Assembly: GCA_938009905.1 (NCBI GenBank)
Contig: CALLGK010000021.1
Span: 1-62,159 of the forward strand
From: an uncultured Acidimicrobiales bacterium
GTDB lineage: Bacteria; Actinomycetota; Acidimicrobiia; Acidimicrobiales; SZUA-35
Length of the DNA: 62,159 bases
Direction of reading: 5' to 3'
The position numbers and the translations under genes were made by a program. Under the pieces are notes generated by a model, which was not told the origin of the DNA, did not search any database, and saw nothing but the letters and a program-made list of their open reading frames with translations. Numbering within the stretch: position 1 is the stretch's first letter; every line of letters begins with the position of its first letter. This document shows positions 4,619 to 54,204 of the stretch, piece by piece.

Positions 4619-6040
4619 GTGTCTGAGCCGAAGAAATACCGCATCACCACCCACGGGTGTCAGATGAACGAGCACGACTCCGAGCGCATCGCCGGGCTGC
4701 TCGAGGCCGATGGGTATGTCCCAACCGACTCAGACGACGATGCCGATGTGATCGTGCTGAACACCTGCTGCATTCGAGAGAACGCCGACAACAAGCTCTA
4801 CGGCGCCCTCGGCAATCTGAAGGCTCGCAAGACCGAGAACCCAGACGTGCAACTTGTCGTCGGTGGCTGCCTGGCTCAGAAGGATCGCGAGATGATCCAG
4901 CAGCGGGCCGGCCACGTCGACGTGGTCTTCGGCACCCACAATGTGCATCGCGCAACCGAACTCATGAAGCTGGCCAAAGAAGGCGGGCCGGTCACCGAGA
5001 TTTGGGAAGAGGCTGCGCTTGATGAAGCGGAGGCATTCCCGTCAGCCCTCCCCGCCAAGCGAGACACCGACTACGGGGCCTGGCTCACGATTCAAATCGG
5101 CTGCGACAACTCCTGCGCCTTCTGCATCGTGCCATCGGTGCGGGGCAAGGAAATCTCTCGGCCAGTCGACGACATCGTGGCCGAAGCGCAGGGCCTGGCC
5201 GACCAGGGCGTGGTCGAGATCACGCTGCTCGGCCAAAACGTCAACTCGTATGGACGCGACCTCGCCATTGCCGCTCGGGCCGCCGGTGATGCCGATGTGC
5301 GCCTTCGCCCGATGTTCGGCGACCTGCTTCGCCAGATCGGCGACATCGATGGCATCCGACGAGTTCGCTACACCAGCCCTCACCCCAAAGACATGACGCC
5401 AGACGTGTTTGCGGCCATGGCCGAAACACCGACGGTTGTGCCTCACCTGCACTTCCCATTGCAGTCTGGGTCCGACAACGTCTTGAAGGCGATGCACCGG
5501 GGTTACACCGGCGAGCGCTACCTCGAGAAGCTGGCGCAGGCTCGTGAGACGATCGATGACCTGGCGGTCACCACCGACATCATCGTTGGCTTCCCGGGCG
5601 AAACAGAAGACGACTTCGAACGCACGCTCGAAGTGGCGGCCGCCGCCGAGTTCGACAACGCGTACACCTTCGTGTTCTCGCCCCGGGGAGGAACCGAGGC
5701 AGCCGAGATGGTCGACCAGTTCTGCGACCCTGAACAAGTCAAAGATCGCTTCGCTCGCCTTCGCACCGTCATCGAACGTTCGGCGATTGCTAAGCATCGC
5801 GCTCGGGTCGGTCGGGTTGAGGAAGTCGTCGTTGAGGGCCCGTCGAAGAAGAACCCAGACGTGCTCACCGGCCGCACCCAACAAAACAAGCTGGTCCACT
5901 TTGCGAGCGAACCGCTGCGCATCGGCACGTTTGCCAACGTCAGAGTGACCGACTCGGCCATGCAGTACCTGTTGGGCGAATTGGTCGAGGTCACCGCCAA
6001 GCCAAGGCACAAGACAAAGATCCCGCTGCTCAACGGGTGA
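4619..6040 (+). CDS. miaB: tRNA-2-methylthio-N6-dimethylallyladenosine synthase (radical SAM)
   Basis: GCQMNEHDSE, NTCCIRENA, CDNSCAFC, LGQNVNSYG, C-terminal TRAM domain. Confidence 0.96.
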   Translation: MSEPKKYRITTHGCQMNEHDSERIAGLLEADGYVPTDSDDDADVIVLNTCCIRENADNKLYGALGNLKARKTENPDVQLVVGGCLAQKDREMIQQRAGHVDVVFGTHNVHRATELMKLAKEGGPVTEIWEEAALDEAEAFPSALPAKRDTDYGAWLTIQIGCDNSCAFCIVPSVRGKEISRPVDDIVAEAQGLADQGVVEITLLGQNVNSYGRDLAIAARAAGDADVRLRPMFGDLLRQIGDIDGIRRVRYTSPHPKDMTPDVFAAMAETPTVVPHLHFPLQSGSDNVLKAMHRGYTGERYLEKLAQARETIDDLAVTTDIIVGFPGETEDDFERTLEVAAAAEFDNAYTFVFSPRGGTEAAEMVDQFCDPEQVKDRFARLRTVIERSAIAKHRARVGRVEEVVVEGPSKKNPDVLTGRTQQNKLVHFASEPLRIGTFANVRVTDSAMQYLLGELVEVTAKPRHKTKIPLLNG

Positions 6041-49844: not shown

Positions 49845-51107
49845 ATGGACCCCTCTGTCCTCAGTGCGACCGTTGCGCCCCTCGCGGGCCTCATCGACGA
49901 CGCGACAACCATGGTCGACGTCGGTTCCTTGCTTGACCGCGTCAGGCAAGAGCTCGACCGCTTCGAGCCGGTCGAACGCTCGATCGTCGTCCTCCTCGAG
50001 GGCGAAATTGCGCAGCAATGGACCCTGTCGAACGTAGCGAGGACAGTTGTTGCCGGGGAGTGGCTGATCCGGCCAGACGAGACCGTCGAGGGGCACTGTG
50101 CGCTTGAGGCTCTTGAATGTCGAATCCCGGCAGATCAGATTCGCCGACCGGCCTCCGACGGTGAGCCGTGGACACATGATCGACCGCTGGTGTCTGAGAT
50201 CGGCGACGAGTGCCACGAGTTGCTTGTCTTCCCGCTCTGCTCATCGAGAGGTGCGGTCGGGTCGTTCACGGTGCAGACCACCGCTCCACTGGCCGACTCA
50301 ATCGTTGCGGAGCTTCGCGCCATCGCCGCGATTGTCACGATGGTGCTCGAAAAGACAACAGCGTTGCGTGAGCTCGACGAACGTCAAGCGGCGCAGAGCC
50401 GGGTGAACACCGACCTCGCGGCAACGAACAGCGAACTGGAAACCGTGGCTCGGATGGCCTCGAGCGAACTGCATCAACCGCTTGGCCAGATTCGCAACTA
50501 CGCCAATCGCCTTGGCAACCTCGATGACGGTCTGACAGAGCGAGAGGCTGACTATCTCCAGCGGATCGTTGGTGCCAGCTCCCGCATGCAAACGCTCGTT
50601 GGCGACCTGCTCACGTTCTCGCGAGTCTCGACCGTCGACGACCCATCTGCAGCCGTCAGCTTGAACCAGGTCGTTGGCGAAGCGCTGATGGACCTCGAGT
50701 TGCTGATCTCTGACGCCGGTGGCGTCGTGACCGTTGACGAGTTGCCTGTTGTGGACGGAAACGCCACGCAGCTCCGCCAGCTCTTCCAGAACTTGATCGG
50801 TAACGCCATCAAGTATCGACGCAGTGACGTCGCCCCACGGGTCGCCGTCCGGTGCGTCGAGGCCGGTCCCGGTCTGGTCACGATTGAAGTCGAGGACAAT
50901 GGCATCGGCTTCGAGCAACGGTTTGTCGATCGCATCTTCAAGCCCTTCCAACGGCTGCACGGCCGCGGCGAGTTTGACGGCTCCGGCATCGGCCTTGCGG
51001 TCTGCCGTCGGATCGTTGAGCGCCACGGCGGCTCAATGGCGGCCCGATCAGTTCCCGGTGAAGGTTCGGTGTTCATCGTGACGTTCGAGACAGGGAGCAA
51101 CGCATGA
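49845..51107 (+). CDS. GAF-like + histidine-kinase-fold protein lacking the H-box His
   Basis: N, G1, F, G2 boxes intact (QNLIGNAIKY, EDNGIG, FQRLH, GSGIGLA); H-box reads ASSELHQPL. Confidence 0.85.
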   Translation: MDPSVLSATVAPLAGLIDDATTMVDVGSLLDRVRQELDRFEPVERSIVVLLEGEIAQQWTLSNVARTVVAGEWLIRPDETVEGHCALEALECRIPADQIRRPASDGEPWTHDRPLVSEIGDECHELLVFPLCSSRGAVGSFTVQTTAPLADSIVAELRAIAAIVTMVLEKTTALRELDERQAAQSRVNTDLAATNSELETVARMASSELHQPLGQIRNYANRLGNLDDGLTEREADYLQRIVGASSRMQTLVGDLLTFSRVSTVDDPSAAVSLNQVVGEALMDLELLISDAGGVVTVDELPVVDGNATQLRQLFQNLIGNAIKYRRSDVAPRVAVRCVEAGPGLVTIEVEDNGIGFEQRFVDRIFKPFQRLHGRGEFDGSGIGLAVCRRIVERHGGSMAARSVPGEGSVFIVTFETGSNA

Positions 51108-52378
51108 GCACGACCGAAAGCGACTTGGCTGCAAACGATCTGCGCGAGCTCAAAGACGTGACCGACATCGTCGAGATCGTCAACTCGCACACCGACGAGG
51201 ACGCACTCATTCACGCGGTGCTCGACAAGCTGCTCGACTATCAGATGGCTGCAACGGTCGTATTCCGGAGGCTCTCCGCCGATGGCGACTCGCTTGTGCC
51301 GGTGAGCTCTGTTGTTGGAGGGTCGAAGCTCGACGAGTTGCTGCAAACAACAGCGGTGCCCCTCGATTCCTTTGAAGGGCATGCCATCCGTGAGGATCAT
51401 GTGGTCTTGATTGACATCGAGACGTTTCCCCATATCAAACTCGACCGCACGTACCGGGAACTCGTGCTGCACTGCGCCGAGAATGGGTGCCGCGGGGCAC
51501 TCTTCTATCCGGTCCGATCGTCCGAGGCCCTTGGAACGTTGACGTTCTACGCCCTCGAAGACATCTCGCTCGACGAGCGCGGACTCGACATGTTCCACCG
51601 CGCCGCAAAACTCATGGCGTTCGGCATCGAGAAGTGCAGGCGAATCGCCTCGAAGCAGCACGTCGAGGAAGACCTGCGCTTGGCGAACGTGCGCCTCGAA
51701 AGCTCCAACAGAGATCTTCAGGACTTCGCCCATGTGGCATCGCACGATCTGCAGGAACCGCTGCGCAAGATCCGGACGTTCAGCGACCGCCTCAATGGTT
51801 CGGCCGCCGATCGGCTGTCGGACCAGAGCGCTGACGATCTCGACAAGATCCAGGCGGCTGCCGTTCGTATGCAGACGCTGATCGACGATCTGCTTGTGTA
51901 CTCACGAGTCGGCAACAGAATCGGAGACATGGTCGCGCTCGGACTGAACGCCGTCGTTGAAGAGGCGATGGTCGAGCGTCGAGCAGATCTCCGTCGACTG
52001 AATGGAACGTTTGAGGTTGAAGACCTTCCGGCGGCGATGGTTGATCAGCGCCAGATGGTGCAGTTCTTCTCGGCACTCATCTCGAACGCCGTGAAGTTCG
52101 CGTCTCCTGATCGGCCGCTCCATGTGCGCATCTCCGGCAAGCTCGAAGACGGTTGGGTCTCGATTGATGTCGAGGACAACGGCATCGGCTTTGAAGACAA
52201 GCACGCAGAACGGATCTTTGAGCCGTTTCGACGTCTGCACTCTCGGGCCGAGTACGAAGGCACCGGCATGGGTCTGGCCGTCGCGAAGCGCATCGCCACA
52301 CGCCACCACGGGGCCGTTCGTGCTCGTAGCGAGCTAGGGGTTGGTTCGACCTTCACGCTGTTGTTTCCAGCAACGTGA
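51104..52378 (+). CDS. GAF-like sensor histidine kinase
   Basis: ASHDLQEPLRKI, SNAVKF, EDNGIG, GTGMGLA; ATGA overlap with the upstream kinase-like gene. Confidence 0.92.
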   Translation: MSTTESDLAANDLRELKDVTDIVEIVNSHTDEDALIHAVLDKLLDYQMAATVVFRRLSADGDSLVPVSSVVGGSKLDELLQTTAVPLDSFEGHAIREDHVVLIDIETFPHIKLDRTYRELVLHCAENGCRGALFYPVRSSEALGTLTFYALEDISLDERGLDMFHRAAKLMAFGIEKCRRIASKQHVEEDLRLANVRLESSNRDLQDFAHVASHDLQEPLRKIRTFSDRLNGSAADRLSDQSADDLDKIQAAAVRMQTLIDDLLVYSRVGNRIGDMVALGLNAVVEEAMVERRADLRRLNGTFEVEDLPAAMVDQRQMVQFFSALISNAVKFASPDRPLHVRISGKLEDGWVSIDVEDNGIGFEDKHAERIFEPFRRLHSRAEYEGTGMGLAVAKRIATRHHGAVRARSELGVGSTFTLLFPAT

Positions 52379-52391
52379 GCTTCTGGAGTTG

Positions 52392-52853
52392 CTAGCGCTG
52401 CTCGGCGGCGAGATCAACAAGCACGGCAGCCGCATGGCCCGCAGGGTCGTCAACTTCGTAGACCTTGGCCACGACCCCATCCGGGTTGATGAGAAAGCTG
52501 ACTCTCTTCGGGAAGTCTGAGAACGGGTCGTCGGCATCGCGCAGAACGCCATAGGCAGTGCCAACCGCTTTGTCTTCGTCGGAAAGCAAGGGGAACGGAA
52601 ACTCGACCGTTTCCTTGAATGCGGCGTTGTCGGCAGGGGAGTCAAACGACGCTCCGAGCACCTGACATCCGGCATCGATGAACTGCTGGGCCTGATCACG
52701 CAGGCCCTCTGCTTGCAGCGTTCAACCAGGCGTACTGGCTTTCGGATACCACCAGAACAGCACCCAGCTGCCTGCGTGGTCGCCGAGCGAGACGGTATTG
52801 CCCGCTTCATCGGAGAGCGAGAATGGTGCGGCCGGGCTGCCTTGTTCAATCAT
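52392..52853 (-). CDS. bcp: BCP/PrxQ peroxiredoxin with in-frame TGA at the peroxidatic position (probable selenoprotein)
   Basis: MIEQGSPAAPFSLSDEAG...WWYPKASTPG-TGA-TLQAEGLRD...VLGASFD...FPFPLLSD...RVSFLINPDG; TGA at 52724-52722, codon 44. Confidence 0.85.
52683..52718 (-). promoter_or_regulatory. Putative bacterial SECIS hairpin
   Basis: On the coding strand GGGCCTG-cgtgat-CAGGCCC begins 14 nt after the TGA; lower CTGC/GCAG pairing. Confidence 0.55.
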
Positions 52854-52927
52854 CACGAACGAATCTAGCTCAGCGCCGCAACCGCTGGGTGTGCAAATGC
52901 GACGGTGATTCGAGGCATCATTTCACC

Positions 52928-53446
52928 GTGACGTTGTTCTTCGCCCTGCTGGCGTTCGGTGGCGCTGCGGTTGTCGTGCTGGCTCCCGTCGTGTCGTTTG
53001 CCATGCCAGGTTCGAGCACGGCCCGAGACATTCGGTCGTTCGGGTTAATCGGCGGGTTCGTTGCTGCGCTCGTGGCCACGCTCGGCAGCTTGTATCTCTC
53101 CGAAATCGTGGGCTACGCGCCGTGCCGCTTCTGCTGGTATCAGCGCTTCTTCATGTATCCGTCCGCCCTCGTGCTTGGCCTCTCGCTCTTGATGAAGAAG
53201 CCCAAGCTGGCGTGGCTCGCGGTGGCCATGTCGGTGATTGGGTTCTGCATCTCGGTCTACCACCGGCTCGAGCAGCAGTATCCAGACACGGTCGGCAGCT
53301 CATGTGCCGTCGATAATCCGTGTTGGGGCCGGTATGTCAACGAGTTCGGTTGGGTGACGATCCCAACAATGGCCGCGGTTGCGTTCGCTCTTGTGTTTAC
53401 TCTTGTGCCGTTGAGCCTTCGAGGCATGGCCGGCGAGAGCGAATAG
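52928..53446 (+). CDS. Disulfide bond formation protein DsbB/BdbC family
   Basis: GSLYLSE, PCRFCWYQR, second Cys pair (SCAVDNPC), TIPTMA; multiple TM; start uncertain. Confidence 0.88.
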   Translation: MTLFFALLAFGGAAVVVLAPVVSFAMPGSSTARDIRSFGLIGGFVAALVATLGSLYLSEIVGYAPCRFCWYQRFFMYPSALVLGLSLLMKKPKLAWLAVAMSVIGFCISVYHRLEQQYPDTVGSSCAVDNPCWGRYVNEFGWVTIPTMAAVAFALVFTLVPLSLRGMAGESE

Positions 53447-53511: not shown

Positions 53512-54204
53512 ATGCCCCAGGCGCAGGTTCAAAAGATCAATGACGGCTCGGACTCCGGCGGCCGCTGGTTTCTGTTCGGCATCTTGGCGATTTTCGTCTT
53601 GGGTGCTGGTGCAATTGCCTTTGTTGCGACCAATCGCGAGTCGGCCACAAACATCACCAACATTCCGCGTGGTGGCGACGTTGAGGTCTCGGCCGACGTG
53701 TCGATCGATGGCACCCCGCTCCCGCCCATGCCGGGTAGCGGTGTGCTCGCCGACCCATCAACTGACCCAGCGGTGGGCACGATCGCACCGACTCTTGTCG
53801 GAACCGACTTCAACGGCGATCCGATCAGTATCGAGCCTGACGGTCGCCCGAAGGCCGTGTACTTCTTGGCCCACTGGTGCCCGGCCTGCCAGGCCGAGGT
53901 GCCATCTGTTGTCGAACTCATCGAGGCCGGAGCGGTACCGGCAGACATTGACTTGTACGGCGTGTCGACGTCGGCCGACGCGACTCGCGGCAACTACCCG
54001 CCCAACAACTGGCTTGCTCGAGAAGGCTGGACCCCGGCCATTATGCGGGATACCGCCGGCAGCGAGGCATTGCTCTCCTACGGCGCAGGCCCGTTCCCGT
54101 TCGTGGTCTACCTCGACGGTGAGAACCGCGTGCTTGCTCGTTCGTCCGGTGTGCTCGGGGAAGATCAGATCACGACGATCTGGGAAACCCTCGCCGCGGG
54201 CTGA
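53512..54204 (+). CDS. Membrane-anchored TlpA/DsbE-like thioredoxin
   Basis: N-terminal TM, FLAHWCPACQAE, cis-Pro FP motif. Confidence 0.85.
   Translation: MPQAQVQKINDGSDSGGRWFLFGILAIFVLGAGAIAFVATNRESATNITNIPRGGDVEVSADVSIDGTPLPPMPGSGVLADPSTDPAVGTIAPTLVGTDFNGDPISIEPDGRPKAVYFLAHWCPACQAEVPSVVELIEAGAVPADIDLYGVSTSADATRGNYPPNNWLAREGWTPAIMRDTAGSEALLSYGAGPFPFVVYLDGENRVLARSSGVLGEDQITTIWETLAAG

Follow-up and report, generated by a model that had tools for sequence, protein, structure and literature searches.

A predicted selenocysteine-containing BCP/PrxQ peroxiredoxin gene with a conserved UGA codon and downstream hairpin in an uncultured Acidimicrobiales genome

The 62,159-nucleotide stretch of DNA analysed here (the window) carries, at 52392..52853 on the minus strand, a gene (prx) whose product is very probably a cytoplasmic thiol peroxidase of the BCP/PrxQ type with selenocysteine (Sec) as its peroxidatic residue, such that an in-frame UGA is decoded by way of a SECIS-like hairpin. 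The initial annotation had proposed a Sec-containing peroxiredoxin (Prx) at this place, and that reading is supported by the presence of sel genes in the genome, by a TGA that recurs at this codon in each of the 19 orthologous loci of related genomes, by a hairpin that is kept in the relatives, and by homologues that carry Cys in place of Sec. The features that the argument relies on are the following.

52392..52853, minus strand: coding sequence of the predicted Sec-containing BCP/PrxQ peroxiredoxin, 153 codons plus a TAG stop (52392-52394), start ATG at 52853
52722..52724, minus strand: UGA codon 44, predicted Sec at the peroxidatic position (TPG-U-T), from the frame translated with TGA=U and comparative conservation
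52688..52707, minus strand: SECIS-like hairpin, from RNA folding and orthologue comparison
52698..52700, minus strand: CGU codon of Arg52 inside the hairpin loop, third base constrained, from codon counts

Reading frame and genomic setting

In the list of open reading frames the prx frame is represented by two pieces only, one of 89 aa (52392..52661, minus strand) and one of 44 aa (52722..52856, minus strand). The initial annotation had recognized the first piece as a 3' half and had extended the frame through a single TGA (52724-52722) to the ATG at 52853. Translation with TGA=U reproduces this extension, yielding 153 residues with exactly one U, at residue 44. The sequence surrounding the codon reads WWYPKASTPG-U-TLQAEGLRD. 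The rationale for assigning U to the peroxidatic position is that this context corresponds to the PxxxTxxC motif with U in place of C; both this placement and the lack of a Cys at +5, where Glu49 is found, agree with what had been described. Moreover, the N-terminus conforms to M-[IL]-x-x-G, aligned at the same position across the 19 orthologues.

Public protein sets present the locus differently. The database entry for it (P0005) is the 89-aa 3' half, and 34 of the 120 best protein-database matches are likewise fragments of 86-112 aa that span only the C-terminal 50-71% of the query. Such annotation could be taken to indicate two separate small genes, one for a 44-aa peptide and one for an 89-aa C-terminal Prx fragment. 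However, the fragment would be missing the active site together with half of the fold, the structural model described below needs residues 1-153, and the fragments P0018, P0040 and P0042 start at arbitrary internal Met codons just past the Sec codon, which leaves the two-gene interpretation with a negligible probability. A single gene of 153 codons is therefore the interpretation that we carry forward.

The prx gene converges on two tandem histidine-kinase genes on the plus strand (49845-51107 and 51104-52378, 420 and 424 aa, overlapping by 4 nt), each with HisKA and HATPase_c domains. Divergent from prx, a gene for a DsbB-family membrane protein (PF02600, 2e-12) lies within 52823-53446 on the plus strand, its true start probably being downstream of 52853, and 3' of it is an ORF (53512-54204, plus strand) with a weak Redoxin/thioredoxin-like match (E 3e-6). 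Among the neighbours at the 19 orthologous loci, a DsbB-like gene occurs at 7, a histidine kinase at 3 and PfkB at 2 other loci. A conserved operon partner was considered and set aside: the DsbB-like gene accompanies prx at only 7 of 19 loci, so no functional link is claimed.

A consensus scan of 52300-53100 detected no sigma-70-like promoter, and the one terminator-like site in the same interval lies inside the gene and is matched by shuffled sequences, which give no fewer. No Shine-Dalgarno-like sequence precedes the window prx; a -10-like TAGATT is located at 52867-52862, 8 nt before the ATG (52851-52867, minus strand). Relatives carry GAGGA or AGGAG 6-10 nt before the start and TAGATT, TAGCTT or TAGGTT about 30 nt further upstream. 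Judging from these motifs, the window prx mRNA may be leaderless, starting at the ATG (52853) or at a GTG (52856).

Conservation of the UGA codon and the selenocysteine machinery

How is a TGA inside this frame to be interpreted? Among 41 related genomes, TGA stands at codon 44 in 19 of 19 orthologous loci, which share 46-99% identity, represent three families of the order and several genera, and carry the motif TPGUT or TGGUT; these include four genomes of the same genus and 14 other genomes. A further 11 TGA orthologues were found among 201 genomes of the class. Pattern scans extended the sample to species-representative genomes, with 76 TGA versus 3 TGC forms (79 classified of 80 loci), and to metagenome contigs, with 79 TGA versus 1 TGC among 80 loci. 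Two patterns were used, one indifferent to Sec or Cys and the other requiring Cys, and the scans are therefore without bias towards TGA. In total, the DNA sets comprise 185 TGA loci and 4 TGC loci, counts that refer to kin and not to independent events. The alternation of TGA with Cys codons that the initial annotation had suggested looking for is thus observed, in that all 19 close orthologues have TGA and full-length Cys homologues (TPGCT) reach up to 58% identity to the window protein, with a Cys aligned to U44 in P0002-P0017. The canonical 2-Cys BCP paralogues (L052-L063) have TGC at this position plus a Cys at +5. The next-best match after the 19 orthologues, L040 (G012:C39), has 43% identity and an EPGSR motif. 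It is a degenerate paralogue within the clade, with Ser where the orthologues have Sec and without the active-site Thr, and probably no longer acts as a peroxidase.

One explanation for the TGA is that a nonsense mutation from TGC or TGT inactivated an ordinary Cys peroxiredoxin in this lineage. The fact that gene callers stop at the TGA, leaving the 89-aa 3' half as the database protein, would be consistent with such a pseudogene. However, the same TGA occurs in 185 loci that span many genera and several phyla; frame, length and catalytic residues are kept on both sides of it over 153 codons, codons 1-43 are not neutral, and a dead gene would not hold an open frame at 46-83% amino-acid identity. 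A pseudogene is, for these reasons, extremely improbable. An alternative explanation is a sequencing or assembly error in which the true codon is TGC, and this has to be weighed since the window derives from a metagenome assembly. In one marine-metagenome study, the contigs assembled from three runs show no difference across the TGA (52722-52724); the comparison uses contigs and not raw reads, and one of them (X1) may be the window source, whereas the other two (X2, depth 19.4; X3, depth 4.1) are unlikely to be. Together with the TGA at the same codon in four same-genus genomes and 14 others, this agreement reduces the chance of an error to almost nothing. Finally, of the 42 long frames in the window 28 end in TGA, as do 6 of the 19 orthologues. 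Since TGA is an ordinary stop in the window and in the orthologues, genome-wide TGA reassignment is excluded. A UGA that is specifically decoded at codon 44 remains the preferred interpretation.

Such decoding would depend on the selenocysteine pathway, and the genome to which the window belongs (G000, a binned metagenome assembly of 343 contigs, 85% complete, with 1.1% contamination) holds all four components, each above its cut-off.

selD: contig C135, 362 bits, with an in-frame TGA of its own in SHGAG-U-ACK
selA: contig C186, 412 bits, adjoining selB
selB: contig C186, 274 bits, adjoining selA
tRNA-Sec: contig C188, 70 bits, anticodon TCA

All four lie on other contigs than prx, a caveat given the binned assembly, and ARAGORN detected no tRNA within the window. 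The initial annotation had proposed a search for these genes and had offered, should they be absent, an unexplained UGA read-through; with selA, selB, selD and tRNA-Sec present, that alternative no longer applies. Nor does this gene belong to the kind of case, namely TGC or TGT in all close orthologues and no Sec machinery, that would have spoken against a selenoprotein: the orthologues have TGA in 19 of 19 loci and the sel genes are there. The distribution of selA parallels that of the gene. Among the 41 related genomes, selA is above cut-off in 19 of 19 genomes with a TGA-form prx, the 10 genomes in which the search found no selA all lack a TGA-form prx, and 12 genomes have selA and no TGA-prx orthologue.

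Other candidate selenoprotein genes were observed in the same assembly. The SelD of G000 appears itself to be a selenoprotein (L001, C135:15378-16301, minus strand), the TGA in SHGAG-U-ACK falling within a 344-codon frame. A second Sec-containing BCP-type peroxiredoxin is predicted at C18:6589-7041 on the minus strand (L224, 150 codons, KTPG-U-TLESQHFRD), with an in-frame TGA at C18:6909-6907. A simple hairpin like that of the window prx is missing from the equivalent place; a 13-bp long-range helix (CACUUCCGUGAUC ... GAUCGUGGGAGUG) begins 16 nt after its UGA and encloses a smaller hairpin. On contig C263, at ~4644-4949 of the minus strand, a Prx-like ORF with a thioredoxin fold (L225) contains a UxxC motif, HIH-U-LPC, whose U is an in-frame TGA, and by its sequence is likely a third redox selenoprotein of G000, of the 'Prx-like thiol:disulfide oxidoreductase' type.

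The hairpin and its loop codon

The initial annotation had described a 7-bp stem-loop starting 14 nt 3' of the TGA, and both its coordinates and its fold agree with our analysis. The arms are GGGCCUG (52707-52701) and CAGGCCC (52694-52688), and they enclose the loop CGUGAU (52700-52695). The UGA-to-stem distance is 14 nt and the UGA-to-loop distance 21 nt, the latter being inside the range of 16-37 nt of the bSECISearch model. We use the term SECIS-like with reference to the general definition of bacterial SECIS elements given in PMC9312934 and PMC1088965.

On the window sequence alone the hairpin is not beyond chance, and its excess over chance is comparative. A single-sequence fold of 71 nt has z = -0.81, with 44 of 200 shuffles folding as well, and synonymous resamples that keep GLRDQA and the genes' codon usage yield an equal stem in a median of 16% of cases (range 0.3-25%). 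The peptide GLRDQA predisposes to a hairpin because GGC/GCC and CUG/CAG codons are complementary, and this peptide is kept for protein reasons, Cys forms included. The lower helix of the fold takes in the UGA (GAAC...GUUC); its 3' half is a Phe/Tyr codon, so that its conservation could be at the protein level. Across the alignment of 19 orthologues, 90.2% of cells are paired, versus 13-59% when the 3' arm is slid. In the same alignment, 7 sequences show a two-sided change from C-G to U-A, Leu CUG having become UUG and Gln CAG having become CAA; both new codons are rare here, and they appear together, forming the U-A pair, in 7 of 7 cases. The 30 genome orthologues contain 19 distinct stem/loop variants, and every one of the 30 has at least 6 pairs.

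The larger sample behaves similarly. Of the 185 Sec sequences 166 are distinct, and in these at least 6 contiguous pairs are present in 141 and 91.4% of 1162 cells are paired, with the register chosen per sequence, a procedure that favours pairing. Five of the seven stem pairs show two-sided changes in the 166 sequences, e.g. GC 117 / CG 41 and CG 109 / UA 48. The other 25 distinct Sec sequences are without 6 contiguous pairs in the anchored register, and some of them have a one-base bulge. The anchored stem is missing in Myxococcota-type Sec forms (L185, L187, L202, L204 and L220, with GHGFREQK), in which the conserved CGUG apparently belongs to another short helix, CACGG-GUU-CCGUG, as its 3' arm; SECIS geometry may thus differ in this subgroup. 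Minimum free energies point in the same direction, with 30 of 30 genes below the mean of their synonymous resamples, a measure that is weak by itself because the mean z is only -1.25. A scan of 52300-52950 against Rfam, with E up to 10, returned no SECIS family and only a chance match to HIV-1_SD (E 5.6). This blank is expected because bacterial SECIS elements are barely represented in Rfam, which according to bioRxiv 10.64898/2026.04.03.716425 has hardly any of them.

The loop is more constrained than its peptide requires. Whether of 5, 6 or 7 nt, it begins with CGUGA in 156 of the 166 sequences and with CGGGA in 8. The Arg52 codon within it is CGT in 29 of the 30 genome orthologues, in 71 of 79 metagenome Sec forms and in 75 of 76 Sec forms from species-representative genomes. 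Outside this codon, the 30 genes use CGT for only 19 of 201 Arg residues, and at this codon just 1 of 12 canonical Cys BCP paralogues has it. This bias therefore indicates a constraint on a synonymous site, for which a requirement of the RNA is the best explanation. The four Cys forms available at the DNA level have the Arg codons CGC, CGG, CGT and CGC, and the stem is kept in L178 only. This TGC form, from an Acidimicrobiales MAG, retains a 7-pair hairpin together with the CGT codon and nests among Sec forms; it resembles a Sec form recently converted to Cys, the SECIS surviving as a fossil.

By analogy with known bacterial selenoprotein synthesis, UGA codon 44 would be decoded and would not act as a stop: SelB carrying Sec-tRNA(Sec) would bind the hairpin that starts 14 nt downstream, with its apical loop CGUGAU, and would deliver Sec to the ribosome, the Sec-tRNA being supplied by SelD, SelA and tRNA-Sec of the same genome. 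One hypothesis that competes with this model is that the UGA is read through without selenium, either by a near-cognate tRNA inserting Trp, Cys or Arg, or by Cys carried on tRNA-Sec when selenium is scarce. Other systems are known to insert Cys by way of the Sec pathway, Cys forms are evidently viable (19 Cys rows lie inside the clade described below), and the identity of the inserted residue is deduced from sequence, all of which lend this hypothesis some credit. However, the genome has the full Sec machinery, the TGA form accompanies selA in 19 of 19 genomes versus 0 of 10 in which selA was not found, and plain read-through needs neither a SECIS-type hairpin with a constrained loop nor its placement at the right distance. 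We consider selenium-free read-through very unlikely and retain Sec insertion as the probable outcome.

Active site, clade history and relation to known systems

The prx product is a BCP/PrxQ-subfamily peroxiredoxin of the AhpC/TSA family. It matches PF00578 (AhpC-TSA) with 112.3 bits against a cut-off of 26 (E 1.9e-32) over residues 5-130 and profile positions 2-123 of 124, and the Redoxin profile more weakly. An AlphaFold model computed from a 44-sequence alignment has pLDDT 97 and pTM 0.92, and the top Foldseek matches of this model are BCP/PrxQ chains (TM 0.86-0.93). By sequence, the closest solved relatives are BCP/PrxQ of Xanthomonas campestris (E ~1e-22, 34-36% identity). The protein stays below the equivalog level of the NCBIfam models for Bcp thiol peroxidase (NF006960, 110.3 versus a cut-off of 140), PrxQ (NF053650, 88.4 versus 260) and PrxU (NF040737, 51.8 versus 270), and none of the three covers the prx clade. 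A widespread, predicted antioxidant selenoprotein is systematically truncated in public protein sets, since gene callers routinely split such genes; given this truncation and the lack of an NCBIfam equivalog, counts of peroxide-defence capacity and selenium dependence in Acidimicrobiia from the sea and from soil come out too low.

The active site consists of P37, T41, U44 and R117. Among 118 distinct clade members P37 is present in 116, and T41, U/C44 and R117 in all 118. Neither of the usual resolving Cys residues, at +5 in helix alpha2 or in helix alpha3, was found in the window protein: residue +5 is Glu49, and Lys80 is aligned with X. campestris Cys84 in the comparison with PDB entries. 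Cys columns shared by at least 3 of the 118 members are limited to 63, 91 and 104. Cys63, the sole other Cys of the window protein, was considered as a resolving Cys at a new position. Only 64 of the 100 distinct Sec forms and 10 of the 18 Cys forms have it, and in the model it lies at the start of strand 63-69, which by the usual beta-alpha-beta geometry would place it at the sheet end away from residue 44; on both counts such a role is unlikely. With no Cys at +5 or at the Cys84-equivalent position, and with the Cys columns limited as above, we infer a 1-Cys-type ('1-Sec') PrxQ. In the proposed mechanism, the selenolate would attack the peroxide with the aid of the conserved Pro37, Thr41 and Arg117, and a selenenic acid would form. 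Given the lack of a Cys at the usual resolving positions, the oxidised enzyme would most likely be recycled directly by an external thiol reductant, thioredoxin-type or mycothiol-linked, as 1-Cys peroxiredoxins are.

The history of the clade was approached with a quick maximum-likelihood tree (138 rows, 130 of them different; LG+G4, SH-aLRT) in which canonical BCP paralogues served as the outgroup. It contains a clade of 126 rows with support 99, comprising 106 Sec, 19 Cys and 1 Ser forms, a Cys share that overstates the true frequency because Cys rows were picked from a protein search, where Sec forms are truncated. The Cys rows are scattered through the clade such that at least 12 changes are needed, 4-5 of which are forced by well-supported branches. 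According to record titles, most members come from Acidimicrobiales or Acidimicrobiia; the others are from Myxococcota, Gammaproteobacteria (including Thioalkalivibrio sp. HK1), SAR324 and Latescibacterota, with one bin each labelled Spirochaetaceae and Alphaproteobacteria. We tentatively suggest, with somewhat less than even confidence, that Sec was ancestral and near-universal in a clade without a resolving Cys and that its Cys members are secondary Sec-to-Cys reversions. If true, such reversions would run against the 2006 tally of Prx conversions, in which Table 1 of PMC1794560 lists five changes from Cys to Sec and none from Sec to Cys, and an ancestral Sec would suggest that Sec lets PrxQ work without a resolving Cys. 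The data hint, in any case, that Sec goes along with loss of the resolving Cys.

How does this gene relate to what is already known? The initial annotation had called it a hidden selenoprotein. The selenoprotein part of that description stands; the implied novelty does not, as TxxU peroxiredoxins (COG1225/PF00578) rank with the most abundant selenoprotein families known from bacteria (PMC1088965, PMC2398784). The 'Prx (TxxU)' family has been known from marine metagenomes since 2005, when the Sargasso Sea selenoproteome listed 43 such genes (PMC1088965), and was later represented by 253 selenoproteins in 34 samples of the GOS data (PMC2398784) and by 12 in the survey of sequenced bacteria (PMC1794560). 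A table in a 2026 review places Prx (PF00578, TxxU) ahead of the families 'predicted with high confidence' and cites PrxU of Eubacterium acidaminophilum as the experimentally supported Sec-peroxiredoxin (PMC13188914, with reference to Sohling et al. 2001). A 2026 preprint reports that Actinomarina has Sec machinery and predicts about 5 selenoproteins for each genome; the word peroxiredoxin does not appear in it. The window gene is accordingly of a known kind and represents neither a new mechanism nor a new family. Mildly new, as far as the sequences indicate, would be a clade that is almost entirely Sec, lacks the usual resolving Cys and is centred on Acidimicrobiia, one of its few Cys members having kept the hairpin; a limited literature search found no published description of this clade as such, and paper supplements may list such sequences. 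The biological value is modest and consists of a well-sampled Sec/Cys alternation and a SECIS that can be traced through many compensatory changes.

The window gene resembles the Prx (TxxU) family in its Pfam family, in Sec at the peroxidatic TxxU, in its widespread Cys homologues, in its marine origin and in a small stem-loop that follows the UGA directly and has a G in its apical loop. It differs in that, going by the descriptions in those papers, they do not resolve a nearly all-Sec clade made up mostly of Acidimicrobiia. PrxU of E. acidaminophilum is likewise a peroxiredoxin with Sec at the peroxidatic position, and its NCBIfam name marks it as thioredoxin-dependent; it belongs to another Prx subfamily, and its 233-position profile (NF040737) is matched over residues 14-138 only. 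The partial match and the score of 51.8 bits versus 270 therefore indicate that the window protein is not the PrxU equivalog.

X. campestris BCP/PrxQ (PDB 3GKK, 3GKM, 3GKN and 5IIZ, among others) shares the fold and the PxxxTxxC/Arg active site, as do Sulfolobus Bcp1 (3DRN) and M. tuberculosis BcpB (5EPF), all with Cys rather than Sec. The X. campestris enzyme differs further in Cys84 (Ser in the C84S entry 5IPH), which we take to be its resolving Cys and which is replaced by Lys80 here; in the canonical BCP paralogues the corresponding difference is the +5 Cys, which is Glu49 in the window protein. For the hairpin, the closest point of reference is the E. coli fdhF-type bacterial SECIS, a stem-loop directly 3' of the UGA and inside the coding sequence. 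The window hairpin shares this placement and the small G-containing loop, here C-G-U-G-A, while its sequence is unrelated and the bulged U of the fdhF-type element is not evident in it.
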